This document shows, one piece after another, positions 30,101 to 50,262 of a stretch of 64,000 bases of DNA (within the stretch, counting starts at the first letter, position 1; each line of letters opens with the position of its first letter). A program made the translations under genes and the position numbers. The notes under the pieces are model-generated. The model was not told the DNA's origin. It did not search any database and was given only the letters and a program-made list of their open reading frames with translations. Source of the stretch: Planctomycetia bacterium (lineage in GTDB: Bacteria > Planctomycetota > Planctomycetia > Pirellulales > Pirellulaceae); contig JANODD010000147.1 of the NCBI GenBank assembly GCA_031412515.1, forward strand, positions 5,110 through 69,109, read 5' to 3'.

Positions 30101-30997
30101 ATCAACGCTGACCCAACCACTAATATTCTAGGTCGTTCGGTAGTTTACGATGGCAATCGCGCCGCAACGTGGACTGAGGAAAATGCAAATCGAGCCATCA
30201 ATGAAGCTCGACGCGACATTAATCCAGACGCCATTTGGTGCGTCGTCGGTGAGAGCGTTGCCATTAGTCCTGCGATTACATTCCCATTGACCAATCAAGC
30301 CGGACGCAATGTCTTGATCGTTGGTGGCGTAGATGCCATCGCGGCTTCAGTGATGAGTGTCATCACTGCCTCTTTTGTGCGTCATGCCAAGTCTAATCAT
30401 CGCGCGCAAGTCTTCATCGCTCAAGCCGCCAAGCCGACGGATGCAAGAGCACTGCAAATGCCCGAGCGTTTGAAGCAGTTGCCGTGTGACCTGAAGATTG
30501 CAAACGTCCGCGGCGTAGATAGCATGTTAAAAGAACTGCACCAAGTGCTTAAGCAACGCATCGACCAACCCGATGAAGCTTCGACGCAAGTGCCCGTCCT
30601 GTTGAATCTGGTCCAGCTCGGTCGATTGCGAACCCTTCGGCGTGAAGATGAATATAGCATGGGCAGTTTCGGCGAAGCGGAATTGACTCCTGACAAGCAC
30701 TTAGAAGAAATACTTCGCGATGGTCCAAGCCACAACATCCATGTGGTTGTCTGGGCGGAGAACTATTCAACCGTCAACCGCTGGCTATCGCGGACCGCAA
30801 TGCGTGAGATCGAGATTCGCTTACTAATGCAAATGGGGGCCAATGATTCGACCAACTTAATTGAATCGGTTGCCGCCAGTCGACTGGGCGAGAACGTAAT
30901 GCTCGTTCACGATGAAGCTACGGGGCAAGATCAGGGTTTCCGACCCTTTGATTTTGACACCCTAGGTGAACTCAGCCAGTGGGCATTAAATGGTTAA
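27110..30997 (+). CDS. FtsK/SpoIIIE-family ATPase, EssC/EccC-like type VII secretion coupling protein
   Basis: N-terminal coiled coil, two TM helices, three RecA-like modules; only the middle one has Walker A AGKTGSGKS and Walker B IVVDEFQE. ATG at 27110 preferred over TTG 27077. Confidence 0.85.
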   Translation: MIDSNPRLLPRQRLEKLVHGLRERLSSGAEKISAEVDQIAATMKEAEALQQEQIAQLQGERSAKEKATINDWDETLHSRWDDAELRSFKAVFETSAREGQLRQDTRKRSDQVNIDAKKRIAEIEQRFLRAKDVPIRRLHEYRANNLNFMGELIEVERAADAALAQHSLRAPNVQPPELQYEKPQSADDCLRMLRAAIADAKVHFDRLTNHPLIRFFESIWLWLIAAAFFVSVTVALGLSGVVVWLFAVLGGAVATVALMLISLLGIRPWLKRIAAAEYPRVKQQVAHGRALHDLGAELATNENDAELKRLAMKRDTRYKQTEKWRILELNELSRRLAEDLEKLRLHAEQQKQAASHQLTTDRDSTTQRFTLQLEQLSQQALSREQNLTQAGVQRRNDFLAAMDRLNRGGVLRLRTATQKAIKTVERSRRWCSVHFPDWQSCQWSADSWPEQLDEPMLPLGNLPLDSLLPENLQADAGNDLDAPVYFAPLTDGYLTITGDPKLPIVQQTVRNLILRSLTTLPAGRTQVCVIDPQGLGRDYGWLMHLGDYDPQLVSHRVWTQPGHIAKQVQMLAQAAEDFIQQSLRNQYRNIVEYNRDAGALAEPFRLLVWTSMPVGLDDQSWKALQSLLDTGTRCGIIPIFLIDPAAPWPSADHKNMVMRRGLHYTVSEDGKSLQPMSESKAKLPIRPMPLPDEAHAQTVIHEVGRRALLASRIEVPLDRIVPAPDQRWQADSSKFLEIPIGQSGVGRTHSLKLGVGTAQHAIIAGKTGSGKSSMLHAIISSAVLKYSPENLRLVLLDFKKGVEFQVYSDNQLPHADIIGIESHREFGLSALEYVDGCMQRRGEMFRSRGVQDIASWNAAVPDQHLPRMLIVVDEFQELFVEDDKLSNQVSLILDRIVRQGRSFGVHAILSSQTLAGAYSLPRTTLGQMGVRIALQCDASDAQIVFAEDNPAAARLKNPGQAIYNDAGGRIEGNQPMQIGWLSKSQQQKWLAEIGNGYINADPTTNILGRSVVYDGNRAATWTEENANRAINEARRDINPDAIWCVVGESVAISPAITFPLTNQAGRNVLIVGGVDAIAASVMSVITASFVRHAKSNHRAQVFIAQAAKPTDARALQMPERLKQLPCDLKIANVRGVDSMLKELHQVLKQRIDQPDEASTQVPVLLNLVQLGRLRTLRREDEYSMGSFGEAELTPDKHLEEILRDGPSHNIHVVVWAENYSTVNRWLSRTAMREIEIRLLMQMGANDSTNLIESVAASRLGENVMLVHDEATGQDQGFRPFDFDTLGELSQWALNG

Positions 30998-31034
30998 GCA
31001 ACTGGCTTGCAACCAAGATTGATTTAAGAATGAA

Positions 31035-34000
31035 TCATTGAAGAGTTGTAGACAAAGTGAAAGGCCCCCAGTCATAAGGTGCGCGAAAGCGGTTGTCCTG
31101 CGAGAGCTTCTTGCGCTGTGCATGTAAGATCCTTGCGTAATCCTCAGCGGACAGTTTTAGTTCTGGTCGCTGCTTAACCGCGCACATAAAGTCAGTTATG
31201 AGAGGCGTCGTCGAAAGATCATTGACCCGCCAATGCGAAGCGATGATATTCTCGGCACCAGCTACTAAGAAAGCTGTCCCCATGGCTTTGATCGTGTTAC
31301 CTCCATATCGGATTGCTTCGGTATCAACAACCTGAGTTTCGCAGGCGCTGAGGAGCACGAGTTCTGAAGGTAAACGCAAACCGTTTTTGGCTTGGAATTT
31401 TTTCAGCACATCTGCAGCCCACATTATCTCGAAAACCTCGAACATTCCACTTGAAGTAGGTCGTCTAACAAAGTGGTCGTCGTTGCTAACCTCGTCAAGT
31501 TTCCACAATTGCAAGTAAGCTCCGCCCAAGTAAGGGGCAGACTTACGCCCCGACTCGATGCCCTGATCCGCTACTTTTACACCACCATCTACATTGATAA
31601 CTCCGGATTGCCCTGTATCTTGAATCGCGCCGTGAGAACCAAAATGGATAAAGCGATAACCTCGCGTTAATTCGTCCAGTAACTTTTTCGAATCAAACCT
31701 GACATTACGCGATTCGCCAGGAAGCTCAGTCGCTTCTGGGATGCCGGTAGGGCCAATTCGCATCACATTGGCAACTCCGAATCTTTCCATCAACGCTTCC
31801 GACTCCGTTCCAATCGTTGAATCAGGTTGAACGGTAAGAAGAGCCCTATGTCTCGCCACGGTCTCAACTTGTGTATCGTTCGAACGCGCAAGCGTCGGCA
31901 AATAGATCAGAGGCGGACATCGATCGATAAGATACGTCCTAGTGTCTGGAGCGCTATCTATAGGTAAAGTGTCCAAGGGGATCTGAAAGAGCGGGCCGTG
32001 GGGAATCACATAGACACATTGATTCTGCGGAGTGTTCGCAAGAGCGTCCCGAAGCTGTATTGGCAGGAGCTTCCTCTGAAGTTTGAGAGCTTCCTGCGGA
32101 TCTTTAAGAGATGGTTGTGCTAAGTAATACTTTAAGTAATCGTGCACTGCGGCCGCGACTTCAGAACGACTTATGTCAACTCTGTGATGTCGAATCTCTT
32201 GATTCGCAATCCTCCAAAATACGTGAGTAGCTTGACTGCCAACGAAAAAGGAAATGAACTGCCGACCTTGTAGCCGGTCCGCCGAAATGGAATTTAATTC
32301 ATTTGCCTCAGACTGGTCGAATAGCTCGGCAATGGTTTGATTGGTTGTCTCAGCACCGACAAAAGCAACATCAGAAATGGTAAGGTCATCAACTGATCCA
32401 CTGGCGGCCATTTCAACGGTCAAATCAAAAGCATCGCGATATCTTTCAAATAGCGCGTTGCGATTCTCGTCAAAGTCACCATTCTTGGAAAGTTTCTTCC
32501 GTTGCTTTAAAGCAATTTTTCGCGCTTCGACCGAAATTTCTTTGAGTCCCTTAAGCTCTGGATCAACGTCATTCAACTGTGACCCAAAGTCTTCGTTCGC
32601 TGGCGATAATAGTTGCACTCGCATGGCGAGGCATAAGATGTTATAGACCAAATTGGGGTATCGGTATTCGCCCTCCGCTTTTGGGACTCGCAGATTTCGC
32701 ACCTCTTTCATCGCTTTTACACAGTAAGTATAGGCTTCATTATTACAATGTTCGTTCGCTGCCATCTCTTCACGCAACTTTGTAATTTCTTCGTGCTGCT
32801 GTAAAAGTCCCTTGTATTGCTCCTTGGTCTTAACACTGGCCTCTTCATATACATCTAACTCCTTTTTGTATGCTTGCGTTGTCTTTGCTAAGGCGTCGGT
32901 ACTTACTTTGCGTTTATCAGAATCCTGTCGCAGAAGGGCAGATGCTAACGAATAGAGTGCGCGAGCACGAATGAAGGACTTTTCGGTCCCCTCGTAGGGC
33001 AGATGCAATTTCCAAATATCAAGTGCTCTATCTAAACTCTCAGCTGAAACGTTGCCACTATCATACTTCGATAACTCGAGAGCTTGGTGGTGTTCGTTGT
33101 TCAGCTTAAGCATTTGTTCGCTTACGGCTGCAGAAAGCCTGGGCTCTTTCAGTTTCTCTCGTAAATTGCTTATAGAGGTCGAAGATACTTTGTCCTGGGC
33201 AACCGCCAGTTCGGACTCAAGAAACAATATTATCAATTCTTCACTTGATTCAGGCTCAGGCTTGTCGATTGCTGCCAGAGCTATTTCTGCCTCCCCAAAA
33301 TTTCCAGAATCCTTGTGGGCAAGACAGCGGATAACATGGGCAGCAAACTGCTTGTTCTGAACGGTATTTTCAAGTTCATCGATTGCCTTTTGATAGTCTC
33401 CATAGGTCAGATGCAAATATCCAAGTGCCGTAAGGACATCGTCTTTTCTACTTGCATGAATGTCTTCTTTAAGTTGCTTAAGTCGAGTGATCAAGTCTCT
33501 TCTAATACCTGGTAACTCCGCTCGGAACTCAGTGGGCGCCAAACCAAGATTGCGGAGCCGGATGTTAACTTTTTTCATACGCCATTGAATCCAAGCGAGC
33601 TCCAGTTCGAGGGATGCTTCCATCTCCTTTTCAAAAGAACTTTTCTCAAGCTCGATCTCGCGAAACGACCGTTTTAGTTCGTCGTCAAGAACTTGCTGAA
33701 ACTGCTTCTCGGTTGCAAGCCACTCCGTATCATCCAGTGCCACCAAAAAACGACTCCGTACCATGTCAAACAAAACACCTGCCTGTGCTAGTTGCGTATT
33801 GAGAAATTTTCGCAGTGCTTTGTTATCTTCACGGTGAATTTCAGTCATGGCCTTGAGTGCTTCAACAACGATAGAAGCGGCGAACGTTTGCCTGTAAGCC
33901 TCAATCTCGGTTCCAATATCTGCATCGGCAGATTTTTTGAAAGTTCGGTATCCGTCCAATAGAGCCGAAGCCCGAAGCTCCTTCAAAGTGTTCTCGTTTA

Positions 34001-35000
34001 GAAGTTGTTGACCTGAACTAAGGTCCTCGTTCGGTTTCAGCAAGGTGCTCGCTTCATCGCAAGCCTTCAAAAGCTGAGCAAGCAAACTGATTTTCCCTGT
34101 GGCTACAGATTGAAACTGTGACAGTTCAAACAGAATTTTGGGGAGTGCAGTCGGAAACTGAATCCTCAACCGCTGGTCTGTTGTTAACTTTAGCTCTCCC
34201 AAGCGTAGTGTTTTTTGATACTTTTCGCGCCACTTCTCGGGTGTACTCGTGTGCAGTGAACTCAATCGTTCGATCTGTATTGAAGTCAGTCCAAAATCTT
34301 CATTCAGTATATTCAACAAACGATCGCACTCTCTCACCGCAACTTCATCGTCAGGCAACCGCCTGATTTGACGGAACGCGAACTTAGAAAGCTCTGACCG
34401 GCTGACTTCAGACTGCTTGAAAGCCTTTTCCATCTTCGAAAGTCGCTTCGCCAGGTCAAGACGGATGTCTTGTTGAAGAGAACGCTTTTCTGGGGAGTCG
34501 TCGAACAGCCGCTCCAAAAGATCATTCATTGCGAACAGGATGTCGGCATCCCAGGTAGCATCCATTCGTTTGTTCCAAGCTACACGCAACCGGGTAAGGG
34601 CCACGGTGCTCATCGCATCCATGCAATCTTGTAAGGCGGCAAGCAACAGATCACGCCCATACGATTCGGCAACCGTATCTGCTGACCGATCGTTCCCAAG
34701 CAATTCAGAAACACGGCTGAATTTCGCTTCGTCCTTAGACTCAACTGCGTCAACCATAGCATGAAATTGCTCAGCCCATTTGAAATCGTAACAGCGCTGT
34801 GATTTTTCTGTGATATCATGCGACGCTGGATCGAACGGAGTCGCACCCAAGGTATCGCCCGCTAAACCGGCGGTGCTTGGGGTTTGAGCTTGTACAAATG
34901 ATACGAATAAATTGATCGAATCAATAACTGCAATAGCAAACACGATTTCCATCACGTGCTTGAACATTGTCTTCACTGAGATCTCTTCAGAGCTACTCAC
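31035..35000 (-). CDS. CHAT domain (caspase-like) protease with long helical/TPR N-terminal region
   Basis: VYVIPHGPLFQIPLDTL, FIHFGSHG (catalytic His), VLLSACET (catalytic Cys), AFLVAGAENIIASHWRVND, APYDWGPF. Confidence 0.88.
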   Translation of the reverse strand: MSSSEEISVKTMFKHVMEIVFAIAVIDSINLFVSFVQAQTPSTAGLAGDTLGATPFDPASHDITEKSQRCYDFKWAEQFHAMVDAVESKDEAKFSRVSELLGNDRSADTVAESYGRDLLLAALQDCMDAMSTVALTRLRVAWNKRMDATWDADILFAMNDLLERLFDDSPEKRSLQQDIRLDLAKRLSKMEKAFKQSEVSRSELSKFAFRQIRRLPDDEVAVRECDRLLNILNEDFGLTSIQIERLSSLHTSTPEKWREKYQKTLRLGELKLTTDQRLRIQFPTALPKILFELSQFQSVATGKISLLAQLLKACDEASTLLKPNEDLSSGQQLLNENTLKELRASALLDGYRTFKKSADADIGTEIEAYRQTFAASIVVEALKAMTEIHREDNKALRKFLNTQLAQAGVLFDMVRSRFLVALDDTEWLATEKQFQQVLDDELKRSFREIELEKSSFEKEMEASLELELAWIQWRMKKVNIRLRNLGLAPTEFRAELPGIRRDLITRLKQLKEDIHASRKDDVLTALGYLHLTYGDYQKAIDELENTVQNKQFAAHVIRCLAHKDSGNFGEAEIALAAIDKPEPESSEELIILFLESELAVAQDKVSSTSISNLREKLKEPRLSAAVSEQMLKLNNEHHQALELSKYDSGNVSAESLDRALDIWKLHLPYEGTEKSFIRARALYSLASALLRQDSDKRKVSTDALAKTTQAYKKELDVYEEASVKTKEQYKGLLQQHEEITKLREEMAANEHCNNEAYTYCVKAMKEVRNLRVPKAEGEYRYPNLVYNILCLAMRVQLLSPANEDFGSQLNDVDPELKGLKEISVEARKIALKQRKKLSKNGDFDENRNALFERYRDAFDLTVEMAASGSVDDLTISDVAFVGAETTNQTIAELFDQSEANELNSISADRLQGRQFISFFVGSQATHVFWRIANQEIRHHRVDISRSEVAAAVHDYLKYYLAQPSLKDPQEALKLQRKLLPIQLRDALANTPQNQCVYVIPHGPLFQIPLDTLPIDSAPDTRTYLIDRCPPLIYLPTLARSNDTQVETVARHRALLTVQPDSTIGTESEALMERFGVANVMRIGPTGIPEATELPGESRNVRFDSKKLLDELTRGYRFIHFGSHGAIQDTGQSGVINVDGGVKVADQGIESGRKSAPYLGGAYLQLWKLDEVSNDDHFVRRPTSSGMFEVFEIMWAADVLKKFQAKNGLRLPSELVLLSACETQVVDTEAIRYGGNTIKAMGTAFLVAGAENIIASHWRVNDLSTTPLITDFMCAVKQRPELKLSAEDYARILHAQRKKLSQDNRFRAPYDWGPFTLSTTLQ

Positions 35001-36915
35001 GATGAATCACCACACCAAAATACGAACTTGCACCTAAATCAATAAGTTCTTGTTTAAATTCTCTGTCTAATTCCAGCGTCTGGTAATCATTTGCATTGGG
35101 AGTGTTTCCTCCTCGTTCCTTGGAGTGTTTCGGGAGATTCTCAATAAACGCCGCTGACGTTGCGAAGTGAGTGTAAAAAAGTGTATCTTTGGCTTCGTCA
35201 GTGACGGTAACCCAAGGTGAGCGAAGCCTATACAGCCTAGATTCCGGGACTTTTCGGCTAAACAGACAGACTATCACAATCGTATTTTCGTCATAAAGGT
35301 GGTTGGGTTTTAGAAACTCAAAATTTGACGATGGGAAAAAAACCTTTCGGTCATGTTCACCTAGGCCGAAAGTCAAAACTACGTTGTGTTTCACAACCTT
35401 TAACCCATCCTCGCTGTTCTCCCACTTTAGCGAAAAAACATCATCCTTCTTTAGCTTTAAAACTTCGGTTTTTTTATCGAGAATGTCTTTGGCCACGGCA
35501 TTGCGTTCAACGAGCATCTTCACTTTGGTCAAAACCGCCTTTGGGAGTGACGATTGATACGTTTGCCAGGCGAAAGCTAACACCCCGATTCCTGCACAGA
35601 GCAGTACTAGAGCGAGACCCTGTACGATGTACTGACCAACTTGTGAAGGCTTTCGATCAACTGGAGATTTCTTTCCCGCAACAACTGCCTGCTCAAGGGC
35701 GTTCGCAAAGTCACCACCTGTCGAATAACGTCCCTGTGGTTCTTTAGCCATCGCTTTGAATACAACCGCTTCCAATTCGCCTGGAATGTTATCTCGAAGA
35801 CTTCGTAAAGAAGGTGGCGCCGAGAATTGTATTCTTTCGCAAATATCAAACACGCTGTTTCCAGGAAATGGTAGTTTCCCGCAGAGGACGTAATAAAGGA
35901 CGCTGCCTAACGAAAAAATGTCTGCGTATGAAGTTGCCCAGTGGGGCTTTCCACTAGCCTGCTCGGGTGGCATAAAGTGTGGAGTGCCTAGCAAGCGATT
36001 GTCGTCAGCCACATGAAAGCGATCGTCCAGCCGCGATAGACCAAAGTCTAGTAACTTTGCATTTCCGTCGTTGTCGATCATGATATTGCGAGGCGATATG
36101 TCTCGATGCACGACACCACGGCGATGCGCAAAATCGAGCGCCCTGGCAATGGCTGCGACCCATCTAATGGCTTCGTCGACTGTGTAGTTAGCCGCTTCAA
36201 CACGCTCTGCCAGTGTTTTCCCTGCAACGTATTCATAAACCAGATAGCCAAGTCCTTCGGCGGTCTCATCAACGTGCAGCAATCGAACGATGTTAGGATG
36301 GTCAAGGCGAGAGATCGCGCGCGCTTCGTGAAGAAAGGCGTCTGAGAGGCCGATCTCTCCCTTCTCTTCGTCTTGGATCTTGATTGCCACGTAGCGATTG
36401 ATTCGCGAATCCTGGGCAAGCAGGACTTTTCCAAAGCTTCCTTCTCCGAGCTCTTTCAGGATGCGATATACCCCAATGAATTCGGGCAGCTTTTCGTCTG
36501 TCGACTTCTTTGACTGGACATTTGATTCTAGGTGCGATTCTGAATTGCTTTTGGAGCGATGTTCGAGCGTTTTGTCGAGCGAAGCCTTTGAGAACATTCC
36601 CGCAGAGAGCTCACGATCTGAACGTTCTAGACGAAGAGGTAACTCACGAATGTGTTGTTCAATTTGAGAACGATGCGGGAGTAAGTCCGGGAAAATACTG
36701 ATGTACTGCTCAACGATACATTCGCGGCCAAACTTGATGGCGAGTTCACTGTCAATGAGCACCAGTTGAAGCAAGGAAGAAATCCTAGTCGCTCCTCGCA
36801 GCTGATTGCCAATGCTTCCAATTGATGACTCTCCGGAACGCCAACTTGACTTGAGTGCTTCAACTGCTTCCACTAGCAACATGCCCTGGTCTTCACTATT
36901 TGGATTGTCAGTCAT
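34993..36915 (-). CDS. Membrane Ser/Thr protein kinase, planctomycete ECF-associated type
   Basis: LGEGSFGKV, VAIK, HRDISPRN, DFG, GTPHFMPPEQ; one TM helix and a C-terminal extracytoplasmic domain; N-terminal LLQLVLIDSEL...EQYISIFPDL helix bundle. Confidence 0.92.
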   Translation of the reverse strand: MTDNPNSEDQGMLLVEAVEALKSSWRSGESSIGSIGNQLRGATRISSLLQLVLIDSELAIKFGRECIVEQYISIFPDLLPHRSQIEQHIRELPLRLERSDRELSAGMFSKASLDKTLEHRSKSNSESHLESNVQSKKSTDEKLPEFIGVYRILKELGEGSFGKVLLAQDSRINRYVAIKIQDEEKGEIGLSDAFLHEARAISRLDHPNIVRLLHVDETAEGLGYLVYEYVAGKTLAERVEAANYTVDEAIRWVAAIARALDFAHRRGVVHRDISPRNIMIDNDGNAKLLDFGLSRLDDRFHVADDNRLLGTPHFMPPEQASGKPHWATSYADIFSLGSVLYYVLCGKLPFPGNSVFDICERIQFSAPPSLRSLRDNIPGELEAVVFKAMAKEPQGRYSTGGDFANALEQAVVAGKKSPVDRKPSQVGQYIVQGLALVLLCAGIGVLAFAWQTYQSSLPKAVLTKVKMLVERNAVAKDILDKKTEVLKLKKDDVFSLKWENSEDGLKVVKHNVVLTFGLGEHDRKVFFPSSNFEFLKPNHLYDENTIVIVCLFSRKVPESRLYRLRSPWVTVTDEAKDTLFYTHFATSAAFIENLPKHSKERGGNTPNANDYQTLELDREFKQELIDLGASSYFGVVIHRE

Positions 36916-39900
36916 GGTTCACTTTCCGTGCGGTAGCAATTTGCGGCTCAACAGATTTTTCCTGGGGTGTTTGCTGCAATGAAGTTTTTTGTCGTAAGAC
37001 TGTTGGAACCGTCTGCGATTCGGGCTCTCTGTTTTTCTTACGGGGCTTTAGCAGGCTTACCGCGAGTATCGAGAGACCACTAATGAGAAGGGCGGTTCCT
37101 GCCGCGATTTCGAAGTAGGGGATCGTGTAATCATGAACAGGTGGAGGTGTTTCTTTCGGCGCCGAAGGAAGTGGCAGGACTTCGAGATCTTTCACAGCCA
37201 AGGGCTTCGCGTCGGATGCAAGTAAGCTCAGCTCTGCAAAGGACTCTTCCGCGAAAATAGCATCGAAGATCATTTCAAGTGCCACCGCTTCGTTCCGTGC
37301 TGCAGGATCGATGGGCAAGGACTCGGGTGGTTGTTGAATCCACTCGGTCGCATCAATTTCATTTTCTTGCTTGTCGTCGGAATTTACGGACGCGAGGACT
37401 ATGAAGTCCTTGGAGGTGTTCTCCGTGCTTGCCGTAAATGCGGGAGCGGTTCCTGAGTCCGGCACTGATTCGCGACCTGAGTTGGATTGATTTGTGTTTG
37501 TACCATCGCCACTTTTTGGAGCAGGCGATAACTGGTTGACGCTCAGCCGTAGTGAACTTGGCGTGAACCGTTCGCGAAGTAATGGAATGCCGTTTAAAGT
37601 TGGTAAACTGTAACTTGGACTTCCAGAGGTCGCTGAAAAGAGAATCAGATCAAAAACGTCCAGTGCGCTCGGGACATATCCATTAAGTAGCTGCACTTCA
37701 ATCTCTCCATTCAGGGCAGCCAAGCCACTCACAGCCATCTGGTCAAATTGGCTTGCTGCATTGGGCCCTGCGATTTCAAAAATCAGCTTGCTGCCGGCAT
37801 TCATGAAAAGATTGTCGACGGTCATCTTTCCGGGACTGTTCCCAGGTCGAAGCGTTCCGCCTGCAGCAACCGTCACATCACCAAGAGTTCCGTTTCCTTG
37901 CAAACTCGCACCACTCTGGATGGCAATAGCCGTTTTCGGAAAACGACCGTTAGCTTTTAGTGATCCGCCCTGAACGTCCAAGCTTCCATTAAAGTCACCG
38001 GATCCGATCAGCGCCAGTGCGCCCGCGCCCGTCTTTCGAATCGAGCCATCACCGGCAAGTGTTCCCGCGAAAAGCAGATCCTTCTCTGCTTGATCAATTA
38101 CGAGACGGCTGCTTAACAGGCGAAGTGTGCCAGGCCCTTCAAGTCCCGCTAGTGTTTGCTGACCTGACCGAAGTTCAAGCGAGCTCTCACCTTCAATAGA
38201 AACGTTTGCCGATTGCCGGAGGTTATTAACGCCGGAGAGCGCAAGTGTTCCTTGTTCAATCTTCGTATCACCCTGATAGCTATTGGCTCCAGTGAAGCGC
38301 AATGTTCCTACGCCGGTCTTGATGAATCCTCCCAAACCGCTGATGGTCCCACTGAAGGTGCTTGTTTCAGGAACTATTGCGGTCAATGTACCTGTACCGA
38401 GGAAGACCTTCCCAGCTCCATCGAAACCATTGGCCGAAATCGAATGACTGTTGAGATCGAAAATTCCGCGTTCGTTGATCAGTAATCTTTCGAGTCGTGC
38501 AATAGTCGCGGCATCGCCTACTTTCAGCGTGCCCTCTTCAATCGTGGTCGAACCGCTGATATTAAGATTACCCGACAGGACAACAGCACTGGTAGTGGAT
38601 TTTACCAGTCTACCTTGGCCGCTCAAATTTACATTGACCTCCCCATCCCGAAGATCAAACAGAGTGGATGCATTCAAGTTGCCCGTGGATCGCGAATCAA
38701 TAATCTCGCCCGCGAACAAAGCGAATTCTGCTACAGATAATTGTCGGCCATCGATATTAATCACACCGACTCTATTTTCTAACCGGTTTACTAGTTGAAG
38801 ATTACCTTCAACTAGCAAGGTCCCTGCTCCCGAATGAGTGACATTATTAAGGCTGCTACCTCCGCTGATCAGTTGTTGCGTCACACCGCTAGGACCATCA
38901 AATTCTAGCGTACCGGTGCCAGCAACAAAGTTACCTGCGTTGGCAAAGTCACCTGCTATGCGAATAGTACTAGCGCCGCTACGCAAGGTTGCGCCGGATT
39001 CGTTGGATGCCTTTCCAGTAACAACAACATTGCGAGCTCCCAATTCGAATGTTCCGGCATTGTTGGACAAGTTACCGTTGACGATCAAGTTGTTAGCAAG
39101 TTGAACAGTGCTCAAGCCAGAATGCGTTAGGTTATTGACACTGCTGTTACCCAAATTCAGTTGTTGAGTTGTGCTTGCAGGACCCGTTAGTTCAATTGTT
39201 CCAGTAATGGTTGTCAGGGTTCCCTGATTGATGAAATCACTTGCTAGACGTAGCCGTCCGTTAGTGCGCAGCGTAGCCCCGGTCGCATTGGATAAACCAC
39301 CCGTCACTGCGACCGTTCGATCACCCAAGTCGATCACGCCAGCAGTATTGGCGAGCGTTCCAAGCACTATCAGGTCGCTCTGAAGCTGCAATGTCCCGGC
39401 GCCAGAGTGCAACAGGTTGTTAAGATCGCTGCCTCCGGGACTCAGTAACTGGATTCCAAGGGGAGCGTTGAATTCGAGCGTGCCGGTGCCAGAAATAAAT
39501 GTCCCTGTGTTAGTGAAGTCACCAGAAAGTTTGATGATCCCAGAGGTTACCGCGAGAGATCCCGTCGTGATGAGAACATCGTCGAGCACGGAAAACGTTC
39601 CGCTTCCAACCGAAACCAACCCCGCGGTGGTTAGAGAGAAGACAGTTTCGTTGAAATTCCCTAGGTCCAGGCTAGCGCCACTGGCGACTGTTACGCTGCT
39701 ACTATTCGGAATCACTTCACTTGCAGTAACTCTCAGCGTGCCAGCTTGTACCACTGTCGCACCGCGATAACTATTCAGCGGATTGTTTAAAGTAACGGTT
39801 CCACCGGAAGGCGAGTTAAAGAAAACTCCAGAGGGCTGAACTGAGTCCGTTATGGCTCCTAGTAAACTCAAAACTCCAGTAGCCGAACGCTGAGTAATGG

Positions 39901-42529
39901 TCGCATTGCCGGTCAGTAAAACATCGCCAGTGATAGAGCTGCCGATGTCACCCAAAACGTTTCCTGCCAAGGTAAGTGGCGCGACCAAATTGACATTGCT
40001 CAGCAAGTCGAGGCGACCTGCAGCAGCAATAACAAGAGGCTCTCGTGCTTCGAAACCTGCAGGAGCCGCGTTGCCGCCAAACGCAAGTATACCACCGTTG
40101 ACAACCGTTCCTGCGGTTGATGTTCCGAGTGCATTCGATCCTTCAGCAACTAATATTCCGTCCGTGATTGTCGTCACTCCAGCATAGGTATTGGATGCCA
40201 CAAGAACCAATGTTCCTGTTCCAATTTTTTCAAGAGTGCCGCCACCGGCGATCACTCCATTGATGATCAAGTAACCAACTCCGCCAAGTTTCGCGACTCC
40301 GTTCAAAGAGATGTTGGACGTAATGCGAACAGTGTCGCCATTAGGTGCATTGGGCAGTTCGGTAGTTAATTCGCCTCCAGCTGCGGTGAAGGTGATTTCA
40401 GTCGCGGTGAGATTCGCATTAGCGATCAACCTTCCGGCATCAATGCGAATCGATCCAATCGCAGACGGATTGTTGAGCGTAATTCTGCCGCTGCCAACGT
40501 CCAGCAATCCATCGCCAGTTACTCCTCGAATGACGGCGGTGCTGCTGATGAGCTCGAGTTTGGCGGTAGAAGCAATCGAGACGACGGATTGGGGCGCTAG
40601 GGAGTTGTTTACACCGAGCGCGATGCTCCCTGCGGAGATGGTTGTATCGCCTGTGAAAGTATTTAGACCTCCGAGGGTTAGCGTTCCAGTGCCTACTTTA
40701 GTCAAACTGCCTGAACCGATGATCATTCCATTGAACCGATTCGATGCGTCATTTAGCCCGATAGTTAATGATCCAGGCGATTTTATTTGGACACTTCCAG
40801 TCCCGGTTATGGCCGCCAACTGACTCGATCTTTCTTCCAGATTCAGTAGAGCTCCTGCAGCGACCGTGACGGTACTGCCGGCGCGAAGTCCATTTGTCTG
40901 ACTGATCAACAATTCTCCTTGGCTGATTGTGGTGGAGCCAGAGTAAGTGTTGACAGCTTCTAGATTGAGGAAGGATGGTCCCCGCTTTTCGAGGCTCCCG
41001 CTGCCGGAGATGACTCCGCCGATAGAAAAGCTCTGCGTAGCGCTAAAGGCGACTGTGTTCGAGAGCACAATGTTATTGTCCAGACGAAGTAAGGTGCCGG
41101 AGTTTTCAACTTGGCCGCCTGAGAGTCTAAGTTCGATGTTCCCGAATGGATTGGTTACACCAAACTGCAGCAAGCCGGACGTCATCTCGAAACTGGCAAC
41201 ATCTAGAATCTGATTGGCTTTAAATGTTCCGCCATTGACAGTTACCTTGACCGATTTCCCTAAGGACGCCTGTGCAGTTACCACTCCGCCAGTTATTTCT
41301 ATTGAGGCCAATTCTGCAGGACTAGAAAAATCGAGAGTTCCACCTGTGACTTGCAAAGATGATGTGGTTGTGAAGCTTGTGAGCGTTGAATTGCTTGAGT
41401 CGTAGATAATCGACGGCAATTCTGGTTGCGCAATGACTACCTTCACTTGATTGCCTGGTCGCAGGCTGGGCACTAAGTTATTGCTCCAGTTGTTAGGATT
41501 CGACCAACGCTGGTCTCCGCCACCCGCATCCCACAAAACATCCGGCCAGTTGCCAGTGAGGTACTGATCTCCTGCAAGTCCATAGTTTACTGTTATCGTG
41601 CCCCCTAGAGTGTTGAGCCGCCATTGGCTAATCGTATTTAAACCAAAGTCCGTCGCTACTCCAAGATTGTCGGTACCGTCACCATCCCAGTCGCCTGCGA
41701 TGGGAGTATATAACAAGCCACCGGATGACTTTTGGAATGTTAATGAAGCAACGACCGGCACCTCAAGTAATGTACGGCCTGTTGGGTAATTAGCACCGAT
41801 GTTTGAAGCCAGAAGAACGTAAAATTCCAAGGTGGTTCCCGTTTCTCGCATGACCGCAAGATCAGCGCGATGGTCACCATCAAAATCACCGACGACCGGC
41901 TTATCTCCAACATCGCCGAAGAAGAATTCGGCATGCGTGGCAACTCGCGATCCGTCGGTTGGAAACGGGAGGTTTGGCATTGCCTTGGCATAAGAGAGTT
42001 GCCAGTGCAGTTTGGAATCGCCTGGCTTTACATCAGCAACTTCTACAACAGCAACGTCGTCTCCGTTTTTGCCATCAAAGTTGCCGACCAAGGGTGTGTT
42101 GCCTGGAGACCCAAACACAAACTGATACTCAGGAGTTGCATCTCGATCGGAATCTAACAGGAACTGACTCGCGCTCAACGATTGATTTGCTCTGACAGTT
42201 CCAACAAAATCGAATCCAATACCGTTCCAGTCACCTGCAATTGCAACATCGTCGGCAGCTGTATTTCCAAGGCCGCCTGGGTTCGTCGATCCTTTACTCT
42301 TGCCATAATGGAAGGCGATTTCCGGTTGATCATTTCTGACGCCAACAAGTTGCTCTGTGTCCAACAAGAACCGAAGTAGCTTGTCATTCTCAGATAAATC
42401 GGGTCTTACTGCAGCAATATTGACTGCTAGAGCAATGCGAAATTCGAGATTCTCGAAGCGAAGCCTTCTCCGGATTTGGTAGCGAGCTGATACGAACGTT
42501 GTTCGCTTGTTTCTCAGTCGAACCATCAT
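36908..42529 (-). CDS. Large surface protein: Planc_extracel-like leader, FG-GAP-like repeats, autotransporter-associated beta-strand repeats, C-terminal TM anchor
   Basis: RRRLRFENLEFRIALA; four GD(W/F)DGD-like motifs; about seven K-x-G-x-G-T-L...NTY-x-G-x-T-x-I repeats; IAAGTALLISGLSILAVSLL followed by KPRKK. Confidence 0.88.
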   Translation of the reverse strand: MMVRLRNKRTTFVSARYQIRRRLRFENLEFRIALAVNIAAVRPDLSENDKLLRFLLDTEQLVGVRNDQPEIAFHYGKSKGSTNPGGLGNTAADDVAIAGDWNGIGFDFVGTVRANQSLSASQFLLDSDRDATPEYQFVFGSPGNTPLVGNFDGKNGDDVAVVEVADVKPGDSKLHWQLSYAKAMPNLPFPTDGSRVATHAEFFFGDVGDKPVVGDFDGDHRADLAVMRETGTTLEFYVLLASNIGANYPTGRTLLEVPVVASLTFQKSSGGLLYTPIAGDWDGDGTDNLGVATDFGLNTISQWRLNTLGGTITVNYGLAGDQYLTGNWPDVLWDAGGGDQRWSNPNNWSNNLVPSLRPGNQVKVVIAQPELPSIIYDSSNSTLTSFTTTSSLQVTGGTLDFSSPAELASIEITGGVVTAQASLGKSVKVTVNGGTFKANQILDVASFEMTSGLLQFGVTNPFGNIELRLSGGQVENSGTLLRLDNNIVLSNTVAFSATQSFSIGGVISGSGSLEKRGPSFLNLEAVNTYSGSTTISQGELLISQTNGLRAGSTVTVAAGALLNLEERSSQLAAITGTGSVQIKSPGSLTIGLNDASNRFNGMIIGSGSLTKVGTGTLTLGGLNTFTGDTTISAGSIALGVNNSLAPQSVVSIASTAKLELISSTAVIRGVTGDGLLDVGSGRITLNNPSAIGSIRIDAGRLIANANLTATEITFTAAGGELTTELPNAPNGDTVRITSNISLNGVAKLGGVGYLIINGVIAGGGTLEKIGTGTLVLVASNTYAGVTTITDGILVAEGSNALGTSTAGTVVNGGILAFGGNAAPAGFEAREPLVIAAAGRLDLLSNVNLVAPLTLAGNVLGDIGSSITGDVLLTGNATITQRSATGVLSLLGAITDSVQPSGVFFNSPSGGTVTLNNPLNSYRGATVVQAGTLRVTASEVIPNSSSVTVASGASLDLGNFNETVFSLTTAGLVSVGSGTFSVLDDVLITTGSLAVTSGIIKLSGDFTNTGTFISGTGTLEFNAPLGIQLLSPGGSDLNNLLHSGAGTLQLQSDLIVLGTLANTAGVIDLGDRTVAVTGGLSNATGATLRTNGRLRLASDFINQGTLTTITGTIELTGPASTTQQLNLGNSSVNNLTHSGLSTVQLANNLIVNGNLSNNAGTFELGARNVVVTGKASNESGATLRSGASTIRIAGDFANAGNFVAGTGTLEFDGPSGVTQQLISGGSSLNNVTHSGAGTLLVEGNLQLVNRLENRVGVINIDGRQLSVAEFALFAGEIIDSRSTGNLNASTLFDLRDGEVNVNLSGQGRLVKSTTSAVVLSGNLNISGSTTIEEGTLKVGDAATIARLERLLINERGIFDLNSHSISANGFDGAGKVFLGTGTLTAIVPETSTFSGTISGLGGFIKTGVGTLRFTGANSYQGDTKIEQGTLALSGVNNLRQSANVSIEGESSLELRSGQQTLAGLEGPGTLRLLSSRLVIDQAEKDLLFAGTLAGDGSIRKTGAGALALIGSGDFNGSLDVQGGSLKANGRFPKTAIAIQSGASLQGNGTLGDVTVAAGGTLRPGNSPGKMTVDNLFMNAGSKLIFEIAGPNAASQFDQMAVSGLAALNGEIEVQLLNGYVPSALDVFDLILFSATSGSPSYSLPTLNGIPLLRERFTPSSLRLSVNQLSPAPKSGDGTNTNQSNSGRESVPDSGTAPAFTASTENTSKDFIVLASVNSDDKQENEIDATEWIQQPPESLPIDPAARNEAVALEMIFDAIFAEESFAELSLLASDAKPLAVKDLEVLPLPSAPKETPPPVHDYTIPYFEIAAGTALLISGLSILAVSLLKPRKKNREPESQTVPTVLRQKTSLQQTPQEKSVEPQIATARKVNHD

Positions 42530-42764
42530 TGATTAGTCACTTAACTAGATATGCTTACATCATTTCGTAAGTCGGAATTCAATAAATCCTTGAAGTGCTA
42601 GCTTAACTACTTCCCTATAAGGGGCAAGCAGGAAATTTCGCAACTCTGCTTTTCCAGACGCATCGCCTCACCTTCAAAGCCTCGAACCACTTCAATTTGA
42701 GTGATAAAGCAAACGCTGGAAATGCCGACCAGGGACAAGCAACACCACTGTTGGTGGGCGTACG

Positions 42765-43763
42765 TCAAGCAATTACACCTAGAAAACTCTGAAAGATTGC
42801 GATCGTTTGCTTACCTAGCCAAGGCTCTTTCAGGATCGACTCGACTCGAGCCCTCAGCTTATGGTCCTCGTCGGACGATAGGCGTCTGTCCAGCTTTAAT
42901 CGCGCGGTGGCGATTGCCAGCAGATAGATTGCAGCACAGATCATCTGAGGTGTGTCGTGGTCTTGTGCAGAACCACGCTGCTTGGCAATACTACGGATTC
43001 CATCTAGCAAGTTCTCCGCTGGCTCGCCTTGGTTAAAAACGTCAGCCAAACTGAGCTTCACCACTGGGCCATTCCCCCCACTGTCCTTCGGCAGCCACTT
43101 CGAAACGGGCTGTTTCATGCAAGCGGCGAACTGCTCCGACATGGATGGAACTTCGTCGACAAGCCACGCTGGGACGTTTGTCCCAAGTATCTCCACCGCT
43201 GCATCTCGGATCGCTTGGCCGTTGCGCTGAACCGTCTTCGTGCTAACGTCGAGTTTCTCGGCAATCTCAGCGTGCGACAAGCCATTCAGTTTTCCTAGCA
43301 AAATCTTACCTTGGACGTCAGTAAGCTTGGCCATGATTTTCTCGAGCAACTCTGAAACTTCGACGACATCGTCCGGTGTAGGTTCGCCGAGTATGCGTTC
43401 GCCTAATACGGTATCGCCGCCGGTCTCGCGTTTGGGGTCGCGTTTGCCAGCCGTTTCGCGGTCGATTCGTTTGTAGGTTTTGTTCAAGGCAACGGAAACA
43501 AGCCACTTCCAGAATCCCGTTTCATCGCGGCACCCAATATCCTGTTCGCTGGTGACGCGAAAAGCCGATTTCATGATCGACTGAACGAGCTCTTCAGGGT
43601 CAAGTCGACGACGGAGCCTATCGTTGAGACGGCCATTAACCAGAAGCAATAATCGGCTCTGGTATCGATCATACAGCCGAGTGGCAGCTTCTTGATCACC
43701 TTGGCGCCACAGCTCGACAAGTTGCAGAACGTTAACAGTCGCATCCTTAGGATCATCTTTCAT
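42765..43763 (-). CDS. ECF sigma factor with ~130-aa C-terminal extension; probable start 43763
   Basis: Region 2 GDQEAATRLYDRY...LDPEELVQS...FWKWLVSVALNK; region 4 LNGLSHAEIAEKLDVSTKTVQR. Confidence 0.88.
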   Translation of the reverse strand: MKDDPKDATVNVLQLVELWRQGDQEAATRLYDRYQSRLLLLVNGRLNDRLRRRLDPEELVQSIMKSAFRVTSEQDIGCRDETGFWKWLVSVALNKTYKRIDRETAGKRDPKRETGGDTVLGERILGEPTPDDVVEVSELLEKIMAKLTDVQGKILLGKLNGLSHAEIAEKLDVSTKTVQRNGQAIRDAAVEILGTNVPAWLVDEVPSMSEQFAACMKQPVSKWLPKDSGGNGPVVKLSLADVFNQGEPAENLLDGIRSIAKQRGSAQDHDTPQMICAAIYLLAIATARLKLDRRLSSDEDHKLRARVESILKEPWLGKQTIAIFQSFLGVIA

Positions 43764-43989
43764 GCGAGTCCGTTTCCTTTCAAACCTGCTGGAAAAAGAA
43801 TTGAGCTTAATCAGTCTATGGGGATTGTCTTCAAAGTATATCATTTCGCCGTGCCAGTAGAGTTTTACAAGATTGGTTGGCGATGCCGTGCGACCGCAAA
43901 TTCTTGCGACCAGTGCAGAAAGGCGGGGGATCTCAGCATCGTACTTAGAGATAGGTACGGAACCGTGAAAACTACTGGACAGAGCTTTT

Positions 43990-44754
43990 TCAGTTTTTCC
44001 GAAGCTGCTTCAAAAATGCTGGCGGTATCGGAAGCGACGGATCTAGACGGTTCGCTTCTTCCAGGTATTGAATCGCCAGCTCATGCTTTCCTTCTTTGGC
44101 CAGGATGACGCCCAAGTTGGAGCGGGCACTAGCAGAACTAACCACCTCTTCGAATAGAGCTAGACTCTCGTCCAGCCGATCTTGTTTGGCGCGGAGTATG
44201 GCCAGATTAACAGTCACCTTTGGGTTGTTGTCGGATAGCTCTTGGGCTGCGGCAAGTTGTACTTCTGCGTTTTCAAGATCGCCCTGCAGCAGAAAGAAAT
44301 AGCCCGCGTCGCTTCGTAATAAAGCATCCTTCGGCGTCTCGGTAATCGCCCTTTCGAATTCGACTTTTGCTTTTACTGCTTCCTTAGTCTGAGCATATAG
44401 CACAGCCAATCTTCGGGAAACGTTCGCAAGTTTTTGATCAAAACCACGAGCTCTTTCGTACAGGGCGATCGCCTCACGCGTGTGGTCTTGATTGTCGAGC
44501 TGATGTGCCGTCTTCAGGCATGCCAAGGCCCATTCTCTCGGACTCAATTCAGAGTTGACTCGAGTCTCATTGCTTAGACTCGTCAACATAACTGAAGGAG
44601 ATGAAGCCGACTGCGAAAACAGTCCGTTGGCGCAGCCGCATTGGAGGCAGAGCAAGACATACAGAACTGCGACTTTGGCTCGCAATAGAGCCTTACAAAT
44701 TGCATCACACCGAGCGGGCTGACGGCTCTTGAAAAAGGCAAGTTTCGGCGGCAT
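43990..44754 (-). CDS. TPR lipoprotein (TadD-like pilotin candidate)
   Basis: LLCLQCGC lipobox-like motif; several TPRs (RRLAVLYA, SDAGYFFLLQG, SNLGVILAKEG). Confidence 0.75.
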   Translation of the reverse strand: MPPKLAFFKSRQPARCDAICKALLRAKVAVLYVLLCLQCGCANGLFSQSASSPSVMLTSLSNETRVNSELSPREWALACLKTAHQLDNQDHTREAIALYERARGFDQKLANVSRRLAVLYAQTKEAVKAKVEFERAITETPKDALLRSDAGYFFLLQGDLENAEVQLAAAQELSDNNPKVTVNLAILRAKQDRLDESLALFEEVVSSASARSNLGVILAKEGKHELAIQYLEEANRLDPSLPIPPAFLKQLRKN

Positions 44755-45320
44755 TATCTTCCACCTATGAAAGGCCCAGGGAATCCACCAGGCGATTGTC
44801 CACCCAGAAGTCCGCCAGTTCCCGCTCCGAAAGCGTTTTGAGAGCGATTTCTCCGATTGCCCTGCATCATCTCACGAGCAACTTGGACAGATTCTTCGCC
44901 GTAAAGTACATTGCCATCAGGACACGCTAAAACGATAGACTCGGCAGAAAGTGCGAGCCCTCGGTTGTTCGCAAGGTCGAGGACCACTTGAACTCGGCGA
45001 TCATTCAGCGAAGCATCCTGCGATGGTTCAAGCGTAACAAACCCAAGTGGCACTTCGTTCGATGAGCAGACCTTCGTCAAGCGGTCAATTGCGGCAGGGC
45101 CGAGTTGGTCCGAGCCATCGATCCATGATGCTTCATAGAGCACCAGTCCGTCATTTCTTGCTTTGTCTGTTTGTGCCGATTGCCACTGCCTTGTTGTTGT
45201 ACCCGTCGGTAGGTTCATCGCTCCAGATGGATAGTAAAAATACCCATGTCGAAACGGATAGCAACCAGTCGACGCCGAAATGGCCAGCAGCATTAGCAAC
45301 CAACCTAGGTTCCGTGTCAT
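44754..45320 (-). CDS. Putative lipoprotein associated with the secretin; probable start 45320
   Basis: MTRNLGWLLMLLAISASTGC lipobox; ATGA overlap with the secretin stop codon. Confidence 0.7.
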   Translation of the reverse strand: MTRNLGWLLMLLAISASTGCYPFRHGYFYYPSGAMNLPTGTTTRQWQSAQTDKARNDGLVLYEASWIDGSDQLGPAAIDRLTKVCSSNEVPLGFVTLEPSQDASLNDRRVQVVLDLANNRGLALSAESIVLACPDGNVLYGEESVQVAREMMQGNRRNRSQNAFGAGTGGLLGGQSPGGFPGPFIGGR

Positions 45321-47056: not shown

Positions 47057-47193
47057 ACAAGCATTCCTTGCCGACTGTTAGCATTCCGTCGTAGTGCACA
47101 ATTATTTCCGTAATGTGCACCATTTTTCCTAAAGTTTCCGGAAGGTACGCGAATTGCTGCTTTTGCGTCAAGATCAGCGCGTTCACAAGTAAA

Positions 47194-47553
47194 TCACTGC
47201 GATTGCATTCGACAAACCTTTGGAAGATAGCCCGATTCGAATCCAAGTCGAATTTCGCGATTCTCAAAGTCGATTTCGTCAAATCGTAACCGCGTTGCCT
47301 TCGGTGCGCCTTCGAACGAGACCACTTTGTCGACTCCTTGACGAAGGATCATCGTTTGACCCTCTATTTGCAAAATCGCTGTGACTGAGCCAAATCGTTG
47401 TACGTATCCATAGAAGACCACCTTGAGTGGAAAAACCGGTTCTTTTTGGCTGACTTGGGGGATTGGAAGCGCTTCATCAGCGTACGCGTTTGATGGAGTA
47501 CAAACCGTAACGGATAATAGAATGACAGCAAAAATTCGAATTGAGGCAAAGCA
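47194..47553 (-). CDS. Small exported protein, possibly PilP/GspC-HR-like
   Basis: Signal peptide ending AYA-DE; FYGYVQRFGSVTAILQIEGQTMILRQG beta-rich segment; immediately upstream of the secretin. Confidence 0.5.
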   Translation of the reverse strand, partial: CFASIRIFAVILLSVTVCTPSNAYADEALPIPQVSQKEPVFPLKVVFYGYVQRFGSVTAILQIEGQTMILRQGVDKVVSFEGAPKATRLRFDEIDFENREIRLGFESGYLPKVCRMQSQ

Positions 47554-47810
47554 CATAATTAAGTGTCTTTCAAACCAGTGAAGCGGGCCTCCTTGCCACA
47601 CGGAATATTGCGGAGCTTTCTTGTGCCACTCAAGCCACATGACCGCACGGCGATCTACTGACTAGTGCTTCAACACAATTTAACTTTTGGTTCGTCGAAA
47701 GGACGCGGGCGGACGAGGGGCGGGCCGACGAGGTTGAACTGATATGACATAGAGTACTTTGCTCATCTAATACTTGAAAATTGCGCTTGCGACGTTCGTC
47801 GACGATGGTT

Positions 47811-48096
47811 GTGAGCCGACGGCGCTAGCCGCGGGTGAACGAAGCGGATGACTTAAACCAAAGAAGGCCTACCCAATGCCCGGAAATATTCATCAAGAGA
47901 ATTGGAACTAGATCAACTACTAGTCATGAACGACAACTACTTCGTTCACCCGCGGCTAGCGCCGACGGCTCACTGACACCCGCGGCTAGCGCCGACGGCT
48001 CACTGTCACCCGCGGCTAGCGCCGACGGCTCACTGACACCCGCGGCTAGCGCCGACGGCTCACTGTCACCCGCGGCTAACGCCGACGGCTCACTGA
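47811..48096. repeat. REP-like family A inverted pair; right arm amplified to five 30-bp tandem copies
   Basis: + copy 47811-47845; CACCCGCGGCTAGCGCCGACGGCTCACTG(A/T) at 47947, 47977, 48007, 48037, 48067. Confidence 0.92.
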
Positions 48097-50253: not shown

Positions 50254-50262
50254 ATCCGATAC

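Follow-up and report, generated by a model that had tools for sequence, protein, structure and literature searches.

A ten-gene cluster and its four-gene downstream half

The window analysed here is a stretch of 64,000 nucleotides from a planctomycete of the family Pirellulaceae (contig JANODD010000147.1, positions 5,110 to 69,109 of the forward strand; GenBank assembly GCA_031412515.1), and it contains four co-oriented genes for a sigma factor of the extracytoplasmic function (ECF) type, a giant surface protein, a Ser/Thr kinase and a caspase-like protease. An initial annotation, made from the DNA letters and their open reading frames (ORFs), had described these genes as a module of their own, and the four ORFs do lie on the minus strand exactly where it had placed them. 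In the direction of transcription they comprise the sigma factor gene (42765-43844, (-); 359 amino acids (aa) as an ORF; Pfam Sigma70_ECF, 4e-17), the gene of a giant PATR/beta-helix surface protein (36908-42529, (-); 1873 aa; Pfam PATR, 2e-28), that of a bitopic Hanks-type Ser/Thr kinase (34993-36915, (-); 640 aa; Pfam Pkinase, 1e-46) and that of an exported, separase-like helical-repeat/CHAT cysteine protease (31035-35000, (-); 1321 aa; Pfam CHAT, 1e-21, at residues 973-1317).

The co-occurrence of the four genes, which the annotation had left to be checked, was confirmed by comparison of neighbourhoods: the order sigma-PATR-kinase-CHAT is found in every related locus (L numbers below; G and C numbers denote genomes and contigs) that is long enough. 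The kinase gene lies directly upstream of the CHAT gene in nine of the ten lineages carrying this rare CHAT family (the window, L031/L047, L035, L043, L044, L045, L046, L050 and L143, the last of which holds the most divergent full-length CHAT member whose context was examined), the PATR gene lies upstream of the kinase gene in each of the seven loci that cover this position, and the sigma gene precedes the PATR gene wherever the contig extends. When metagenomes were scanned with the kinase alignment, generic kinases dominated the output, and the relevant loci were L049 and L050 alone. Judged by this gene order, the four genes form a conserved unit rather than a chance neighbourhood. It could be argued that common planctomycete gene types have come together fortuitously and without joint function, given that each of the domain types is very common in Planctomycetota and that ECF-kinase pairs are frequent there. 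However, the same order is maintained in about ten lineages at 21-60% identity, and the N-terminal family of the CHAT protein is rare, with 22 matches among 1.84 billion representative proteins in a search that used the N-terminal solenoid region only, while all full-length members examined have the kinase upstream; we consider mere coincidence hardly credible. Full-length homologs of the CHAT protein numbered three among 5.8 billion clustered proteins.

Two variants of the operon were observed. L038/L043 carries two tandem sigma paralogs of 334 and 327 aa (L038, 10001-12097), whose identity to the sigma factor of the window is 57% and 41%, and in L048 (10504-12579) an extra 691-aa kinase and a 177-aa ORF are inserted between the sigma and PATR genes.

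The genes of the block are closely spaced. The gap between the sigma and PATR genes, reported as 236 bp, is indeed present and forms a leader of 235 nt (42530-42764, (-)), and the 8-nt overlap that had been claimed for the PATR (adhesin) and kinase genes is there as well (ATGACTGA). For the kinase and CHAT genes, an overlap of this length is obtained if the CHAT protein starts at its GTG codon, but not if it starts at an ATG 33 nt downstream (34967), which would leave a 25-nt spacer; the database gene call of 1310 aa uses this ATG, and a start there provides the protein with a normal signal peptide. As the corresponding junctions in the orthologs are similarly short, with gaps of 14-26 nt or overlaps of 1-8 nt, the two genes are tightly packed under either start. 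The greater AT-richness attributed to the whole block applies to the kinase and CHAT genes (GC 0.476 and 0.471, compared to 0.506 for the 64-kb window and 0.514 for the genome), but not to the sigma and PATR genes (0.519 and 0.506), which show no dip. The dip is seen again in all orthologous loci and is therefore intrinsic to the kinase and CHAT genes rather than a mark of recent transfer; recent horizontal acquisition, considered as an origin of the block, was rejected on these grounds.

As annotated, the block is located between FtsK/type VII secretion-like and Tad-like genes. The FtsK/type VII secretion-like locus (27077-30997, (+)) is convergent with the CHAT gene across 37 bp and adjoins the cluster in no related locus, where a transposase, sulfatase or epimerase gene follows the CHAT gene. 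On the other side, however, the notion of a free-standing four-part module did not survive the comparison, since the block is the downstream half of a conserved cluster of ~20 kb and ten genes. What had appeared as a "Tad-like locus" is a six-gene operon (43990-51375), and the same six genes precede the sigma gene in all seven loci with upstream DNA (the window, L036, L037, L038, L040, L047 and L048). The first of these encodes a short CpaF/TadA-like T2SSE ATPase (50263-51375, (-); 370 aa, no FHA domain; Pfam T2SSE, 8e-51), whose orthologs in the other six loci are 79-90% identical and occupy the same position. Behind it, in all loci, stands the gene of a 698-aa protein with a transmembrane segment and a C-terminal PEGA domain (48157-50253, (-); Pfam Pkinase, 2e-25, and PEGA, 3e-12), which keeps a VAIK-like Lys but reads CHGQ where HRD, and SNL where DFG, would be expected; because both aspartates are missing, we classify it as a pseudokinase. 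The operon continues with a small conserved protein (47194-47640, (-); 148 aa; syntenic orthologs with 27-37% identity), a secretin (45317-47056, (-); 579 aa; Pfam Secretin, 1e-37; orthologs 58-71% identical), a conserved hypothetical protein (44754-45386, (-); 210 aa; no Pfam match; syntenic orthologs with 44-57% identity) and a tetratricopeptide repeat (TPR) protein (43990-44754, (-); 254 aa; Pfam TPR families; syntenic orthologs with 47-63% identity). Of a complete Tad/Flp system, the window holds the ATPase and the secretin only.

Sigma factor, kinase, surface protein and protease

The core of the sigma factor spans residues 38-214 (Pfam Sigma70_ECF and r4_2), scores above the cutoff of TIGR02937 and consists of sigma2 and sigma4 only, with neither sigma3 nor sigma1, as is typical of ECF (group 4 sigma70) factors; its structural matches in Foldseek (SigE, SigW and AlgU) cover this core alone. 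To it is joined a non-sigma C-terminal domain (CTD) of ~145 aa. Fourteen homologs of 41-77% identity conserve this domain, with W250, Y307, S323 and W342 invariant, and its residues 235-358 are modelled by AlphaFold2 as all-helical with a predicted local distance difference test score (pLDDT) of ~90. The protein thereby falls among the ECFs with a regulatory C-terminal extension, defined by more than 50-100 aa fused to sigma4. The CTD gave no Pfam match at E<=10 and no sequence match in the PDB, and it fits none of the described extension families (ECF41, SnoaL-like; ECF42, TPR; and ECF238 CorE, Cys-rich, were tested). Translation probably starts at M28 (43763), which is also the database start, yielding a protein of 332 aa. 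The 27 codons before M28 (43763-43844, (-)) form an open frame in five homologs and have an RFERxRxRM-like ending in common; this region is disordered in the AlphaFold2 model and may represent an alternative start codon or a conserved leader. As to its distribution, the sigma factor has no close paralog in its own genome and was not found in 400 genomes of the class, those of the same genus included; among 185,579 species genomes, it was present in only two Pirellulaceae metagenome-assembled genomes besides the window's genome.

The initial annotation had pointed to the PknT/EcfP pair of Vibrio parahaemolyticus, in which an ECF43 sigma factor is activated by a transmembrane Hanks kinase. This analogy fails at its defining feature. 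The sigma2.2 region of the window's sigma factor reads DPEELVQS, aligned with DVPDVVQE of Escherichia coli RpoE, and retains its acidic residues, D82 being invariant and position 85 mostly acidic (E, D or N) across 15 sequences. Membership in ECF43, which would entail an uncharged QTTA or STTA motif with a phospho-acceptor Thr instead of the acidic DAED/DxxD motif, was rejected for this reason. The final Glu of the "QE" is replaced by an invariant Ser89, which we regard as a lead only. Control by a conventional anti-sigma factor also finds no counterpart here, in that no anti-sigma Pfam domain was detected in any cluster protein. A small anti-sigma gene hidden in the sigma-PATR gap was considered and rejected, the ORFs of 53-105 aa in this gap of the window, L031 and L038 being mutually dissimilar; those called in L037 are pieces of a frameshifted PATR gene. 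Rfam returned nothing at E<=1 across 30500-52000, so that the idea of leaders containing a riboswitch or a known RNA was likewise discarded, and no convincing terminator was found in the sigma-PATR leader. The activity of the sigma factor could be controlled via Ser89, via its unusually conserved sigma2-sigma4 linker, or via the CTD.

The kinase is composed of a conserved N-terminal domain of ~95 aa, the kinase domain (residues 150-400), a transmembrane helix (429-450) and a periplasmic domain of ~190 aa. All hallmarks of Hanks-type kinases are intact, namely the G-loop, the VAIK Lys and the Asp residues of HRD and DFG, and 13 homologs show no variation at the corresponding residues (GEGSFG 157-162, K179, HRD 270-272 and DFG 290-292). 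To judge by these motifs and the domain layout, the kinase is catalytically intact and bitopic. No Pfam family matches its N-terminal or its periplasmic domain.

The giant surface protein begins with a planctomycete N-terminal export motif (residues 20-35), followed by FG-GAP-like DxDGD repeats and PATR repeats (NCBIfam autotrns_rpt, 3e-37), and ends with a PGNSPG...YDQ module (from residue 1562), a linker, a transmembrane helix (1805-1827), a basic stretch and a cytoplasmic tail of ~40 aa. As it contains the passenger repeats of type V autotransporters only and no C-terminal beta-barrel, it does not belong to this class. The C-terminal transmembrane helix and tail are kept in six orthologs, and the stalk segment between the beta-helix and this helix is conserved in all PATR orthologs.

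The CHAT protein carries a Sec-type signal peptide of 28 aa (residues 12-39), and signal peptides are present in all seven orthologs, indicating from sequence that the protein is periplasmic. Its CHAT domain contains the His-Cys dyad of clan CD proteases, formed by His1123 (HFGSHG; codon 31632-31634) and Cys1220 (SACETQ; codon 31341-31343) and preceded by an alpha-solenoid; both residues and a GGNT motif are invariant in seven orthologs that share only 21-47% pairwise identity. The window's protein has an insertion of ~25 aa, VSNDDHFVRRPTSSGMFEVFEIMWA, between the catalytic His and Cys (residues 1171-1195; 31416-31490, (-)), which is absent from all six orthologs. A sequence search of the PDB returned nothing, and a homolog search of 400 genomes of the phylum reached no further than the final ~110 residues of unrelated CHAT proteins. 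In the AlphaFold2 model, an all-helical alpha-solenoid of ~780 residues leads into the CHAT fold, and the best PDB neighbours identified by Foldseek are separase (2e-10), Csx29 (5e-8) and DdvA (8rot_A, 7e-8), with a probability of 1.0, a sequence identity to separase and Csx29 of about 10-13%, and template modelling scores that are low because the arrangement of the solenoid is uncertain. Separase and the Csx29 protease of type III-E clustered regularly interspaced short palindromic repeats (CRISPR) systems share with the CHAT protein the succession of a long alpha-solenoid and a CHAT caspase-like domain. Both, however, act in the cytoplasm or nucleus, under the control of securin and phosphorylation or of Cas7-11 and RNA, whereas the CHAT protein is exported, and it has no Csx30/Csx31 or Cas partner. 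The Csx29/Csx30 analogy drawn in the initial annotation is thus topologically wrong, and the closer precedent is the anti-sigma factor DdvA with its periplasmic TPR-CHAT part.

DdvA of Myxococcus xanthus has been proposed to self-cleave and thereby free an ECF sigma factor (DdvS), and it resembles the protein described here in combining periplasmic helical repeats with a CHAT domain containing a His/Cys dyad, and in being genetically tied to an ECF sigma factor. By analogy, the CHAT protein might act as a site-1 protease on a membrane-bound inhibitor of the sigma factor, maybe a scaffold provided by the kinase, whose N-terminal domain would sequester the sigma factor by way of the CTD until cleavage releases it, no phosphorylation being needed. 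The grouping of the CHAT model with DdvA in Foldseek would fit such a mechanism, as would the intact acidic sigma2.2 region, by which the sigma factor should be intrinsically active and in need of an inhibitor, and the presence in both sigma factor and kinase of conserved cytoplasmic domains without a family match that could dock together. DdvA, however, unites its parts on a single chain that has a zinc anti-sigma domain in the cytoplasm and a transmembrane helix, and its regulon comprises a cyclic-oligonucleotide-based anti-phage signalling system and CRISPR genes. Here, the CHAT protein is separate and exported, the membrane partner is a kinase, and the predicted regulon concerns adhesion and pili. 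In all CHAT orthologs the N-terminus consists of a cleavable signal peptide only, with no stable membrane anchor and no anti-sigma domain, such a domain being detected in none of the cluster's proteins, and the invariant catalytic residues of the kinase argue for phosphotransfer. We consequently judge release of the sigma factor by proteolysis to be improbable.

A further precedent concerns the adhesin. In the LapA/LapG/LapD system of Pseudomonas fluorescens, a giant adhesin is the target of a periplasmic Cys protease that can be held by the periplasmic domain of an inner-membrane signalling protein; LapG is a bacterial transglutaminase-like cysteine protease (BTLCP), LapD a degenerate GGDEF-EAL receptor of cyclic di-GMP, and LapA depends on a type I secretion system. 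The likeness is one of logic only and does not extend to homology, the corresponding parts here being a CHAT protease, a Hanks kinase, a PATR protein anchored by a transmembrane helix, and a secretin. One may nevertheless imagine that the CHAT protein matures or sheds the PATR protein by a cut in its stalk, that the kinase ectodomain serves as receptor or inhibitor, and that the sigma factor merely ensures co-expression. The genes of the giant adhesin, the periplasmic Cys protease and the inner-membrane signalling protein adjoin one another, their translation being coupled or almost so, the stalk is maintained throughout the PATR orthologs, and PATR and CHAT are the fastest-evolving proteins of the cluster, as would be expected of an exposed, interacting pair. 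On the other hand, the CHAT protein is unrelated to BTLCPs of the LapG type, the kinase has no GGDEF, EAL or LapD-like domains, and the constant pairing of a Hanks kinase with an ECF sigma factor that lacks an anti-sigma factor and carries a special CTD would be left unexplained. Adhesin processing as the principal role of the block therefore strikes us as possible but doubtful, although it is compatible with the sigma-directed attachment circuit that we favour below and does not compete with it exclusively.

A promoter motif linking the cluster to Tad pilus genes

By comparing intergenic regions, we identified the motif TGTCCA-N13-TTCCGTA, whose geometry is ECF-like, with TGTCCA resembling a -35 element, a 16-nt spacer and CGTA. 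In the window it defines two predicted ECF-type promoters, P1 (TGTCCAGCGTTTTCTTTAGTTCCGTA; 51482-51507, (-)), located 106 nt before the ATPase gene, and P2 (TGTCCAGTAGTTTTCACGGTTCCGTA; 43956-43981, (-)), directly after the stop codon of the TPR gene and upstream of the sigma gene. These two are the only perfect copies with N13 spacing in the 8.9-Mb genome, and both are intergenic and correctly oriented. A position weight matrix (PWM), whose training sites included L036, L047 and L048, was scanned over both strands of 13 loci carrying parts of the cluster and reached at least 20 bits only at predicted promoter positions. Sites were found upstream of the sigma gene in L036, L047, L048, L038 and L040, those of L038 and L040 lying outside the training set and scoring 27-30 bits. 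L036, L047 and L048 have another before the ATPase gene, and L036 has a third strong site before the gene preceding the ATPase gene. L037 contains the sigma motif with an N14 spacing and two weak PWM matches of 18.9 and 15.6 bits, the only others in the scan. The PWM found no match upstream of the PATR, kinase or CHAT genes, and upstream of PATR none of at least 14 bits. The earlier suggestion that the sigma factor drives the operon is consistent with these results, as the motif is situated directly upstream of the sigma gene in all seven sigma loci and before none of the three genes that follow. The simplest reading of this distribution would be a single autoregulated sigma-PATR-kinase-CHAT transcript together with a co-regulated ATPase-secretin operon.

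Beyond the window, ten copies of the N13 motif with one mismatch occur in the genome, compared to a background of 1-14 scattered copies for other spacings, and five of the ten are located within 21 kb of a single contig, C28. All five lie between genes and face flp, the cpaF unit, tadBC, a PATR-like protease and one more gene; the other copies fall inside ORFs. C28 (9600-36500) contains a Tad/Flp locus with a Flp-like pilin (9806-10021), an A24-type prepilin peptidase-like protein (10124-10813), TadE-like proteins, FHA-CpaF (16368-18236), TadB (30307-31164) and TadC (31181-32095), in which no secretin was found. As C28 lacks the secretin, and the window the platform, pilin and peptidase, the two loci complement each other, and the window's Tad-like locus looks incomplete because the motif-linked machine is split over two separate loci. 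Taken together, they hold what is expected of Tad/Flp systems, that is, a TadA-family ATPase and a secretin in the window, and pilin, peptidase, TadE-like proteins, FHA-CpaF and TadB/C on C28; unlike such systems, they are divided between two sites and include a PEGA pseudokinase gene behind the short ATPase. To our knowledge, no characterised Tad system possesses a dedicated unit of ECF sigma factor, kinase and CHAT protease.

The link between motif and pilus genes is seen again in other genomes. G779, the genome of L047, has six exact copies of the motif, compared to none for a reversed control, and its Tad locus shows exact copies and PWM matches at the orthologous sites preceding flp, the cpaF unit and tadB; in G787, the genome of L048 and a member of the window's genus, PWM matches lie upstream of flp and the cpaF unit. 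Close orthologs of FHA-CpaF were found only in the sigma-bearing genomes G000, G779 and G787 (100, 86 and 76% identity), whereas genomes of the same genus without the sigma factor have relatives of only 50-54%. The window's short ATPase shares 43% identity with FHA-CpaF and is a second paralog.

Several further genes were noted in this context. The PATR-like protease on C28 (27704-30088, (-)) is an exported protein of 794 aa that contains a zinc-metalloprotease motif, HEVGHSLGLQHDG, together with GDWxxDGxDD repeats of FG-GAP-like type that resemble the N-terminus of the PATR protein; its gene starts 53 nt downstream of a motif copy and is divergent from tadB. On contig C115 (~25.2-27.5 kb), a short CpaF-like ATPase (53% identity) is encoded beside a PEGA-kinase-like gene (29%), and on C323 (~33.3-37.9 kb) an FHA-CpaF paralog (43-45% identity) lies ~2.4 kb from a weak ECF sigma match. 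These two pairs suggest that Tad-like loci with dedicated regulators recur in the genus.

The tie to pilus genes also bears on another view of the cluster, according to which caspase and kinase form a conflict, defence or programmed-death module that came to lie beside adhesion genes by chance. CHAT proteases and Hanks kinases are known from several defence systems, and in PADLOC the kinase domain scores against the kinase models of PD-T4-6, Mad6 and PglW. These matches, however, cover only the generic kinase domain, and the CHAT, sigma, PATR and secretin proteins obtained none. Moreover, the CHAT protein is exported rather than cytoplasmic, no NTPase, nuclease, CRISPR or gasdermin partner is present, synteny with adhesin, secretin and sigma factor is strict, and the promoter motif is common to the Tad genes; a role in defence thus appears very unlikely.

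A predicted circuit for surface attachment

On balance, we regard it as more likely than not that the sigma-PATR-kinase-CHAT genes constitute the regulatory and cargo operon of the ~20-kb cluster and that this cluster controls surface attachment. The sigma factor would recognise the motif, thereby autoregulating its own operon and co-inducing the secretin operon and the Tad pilus genes. Since no anti-sigma factor is encoded, we propose that the co-transcribed membrane kinase sets the activity of the sigma factor, through either the sigma core or the helical CTD. The periplasmic domain of the kinase, the exported CHAT protein and the juxtamembrane stalk of the PATR protein would come together on the outer side of the cytoplasmic membrane, where the CHAT protease would most likely cut the adhesin stalk or the kinase ectodomain depending on the state of the surface fibre and so change the output of the kinase. 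The outcome would be a feed-forward switch for the production of adhesin, secretin and pilus. That the protease acts on one of these two targets is a point that we infer.

Several observations weigh against this proposal or narrow its basis. Recognition of the motif by the sigma factor is deduced from position and geometry alone, and a different kind of promoter could lie in the 235 nt between the sigma and PATR genes. The preserved acidic residues in sigma2.2 render the proven mechanism of EcfP inapplicable to this sigma factor, and the model of the CHAT protein is of moderate quality, with a pLDDT of 67. The family is very rare, with a sample of about ten lineages, probably all from Pirellulaceae. 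Finally, one CHAT homolog, that of L034 in genome G778, has no adjacent kinase gene and is the sole exception in this respect. This copy (G778:C690:6998-10237) is truncated at its N-terminus, aligning from residue ~250, is located amid unrelated housekeeping genes and may be a relic.

In its regulatory logic, the proposed circuit most resembles PknS/EcfK of Xanthomonas citri, a kinase/sigma pair that is embedded in a type VI secretion cluster and switches it on. As in this pair and in PknT/EcfP, an ECF sigma factor without an anti-sigma factor is encoded together with a Hanks kinase that is bitopic and carries a periplasmic sensor domain. The differences are nevertheless considerable: the sigma2.2 region contains an acidic DxxE rather than the uncharged S/T motif of ECF43, the sigma factor has its additional ~145-aa domain, a giant adhesin gene separates the kinase gene from the sigma gene, an exported CHAT protein follows the kinase, and the predicted output is a regulon of secretin and Tad pilus genes. 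Our literature searches found no description of the cluster. The combination of ECF-kinase signalling with a periplasmic CHAT protease would be new, and the regulon predicted for it in silico is well supported.

A more specific version of the attachment circuit can be envisaged, in which the cluster acts as a contact sensor. The PATR fibre, anchored by its C-terminal helix, would be threaded through the secretin with the help of the ATPase and the pseudokinase; upon load from a surface, the CHAT protease would cut the stalk, and the kinase ectodomain would read the remaining stub and phosphorylate the sigma factor or its CTD, whereupon the sigma factor would launch Tad assembly. We think that matters are unlikely to be arranged in just this way; if they were, the cluster would represent a bacterial mechanosensory pathway resembling Notch.

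Among the signalling devices of Planctomycetota, ECF-kinase pairs dominate but are the least understood, and only for ECF43 has a mechanism been demonstrated. The cluster offers a compact and strictly conserved case that falls outside the ECF43 rule and includes a new type of sigma CTD, while its CHAT protease joins DdvA, the only other periplasmic example that has been studied. The sharpness of the promoter motif allows the likely outputs to be read from the genome, namely the secretin operon, the giant adhesin and the Tad pilus genes. The cluster thus provides testable hypotheses on how a bacterial protease of the caspase family may operate outside the cytoplasm, and on how a planctomycete may decide to attach.

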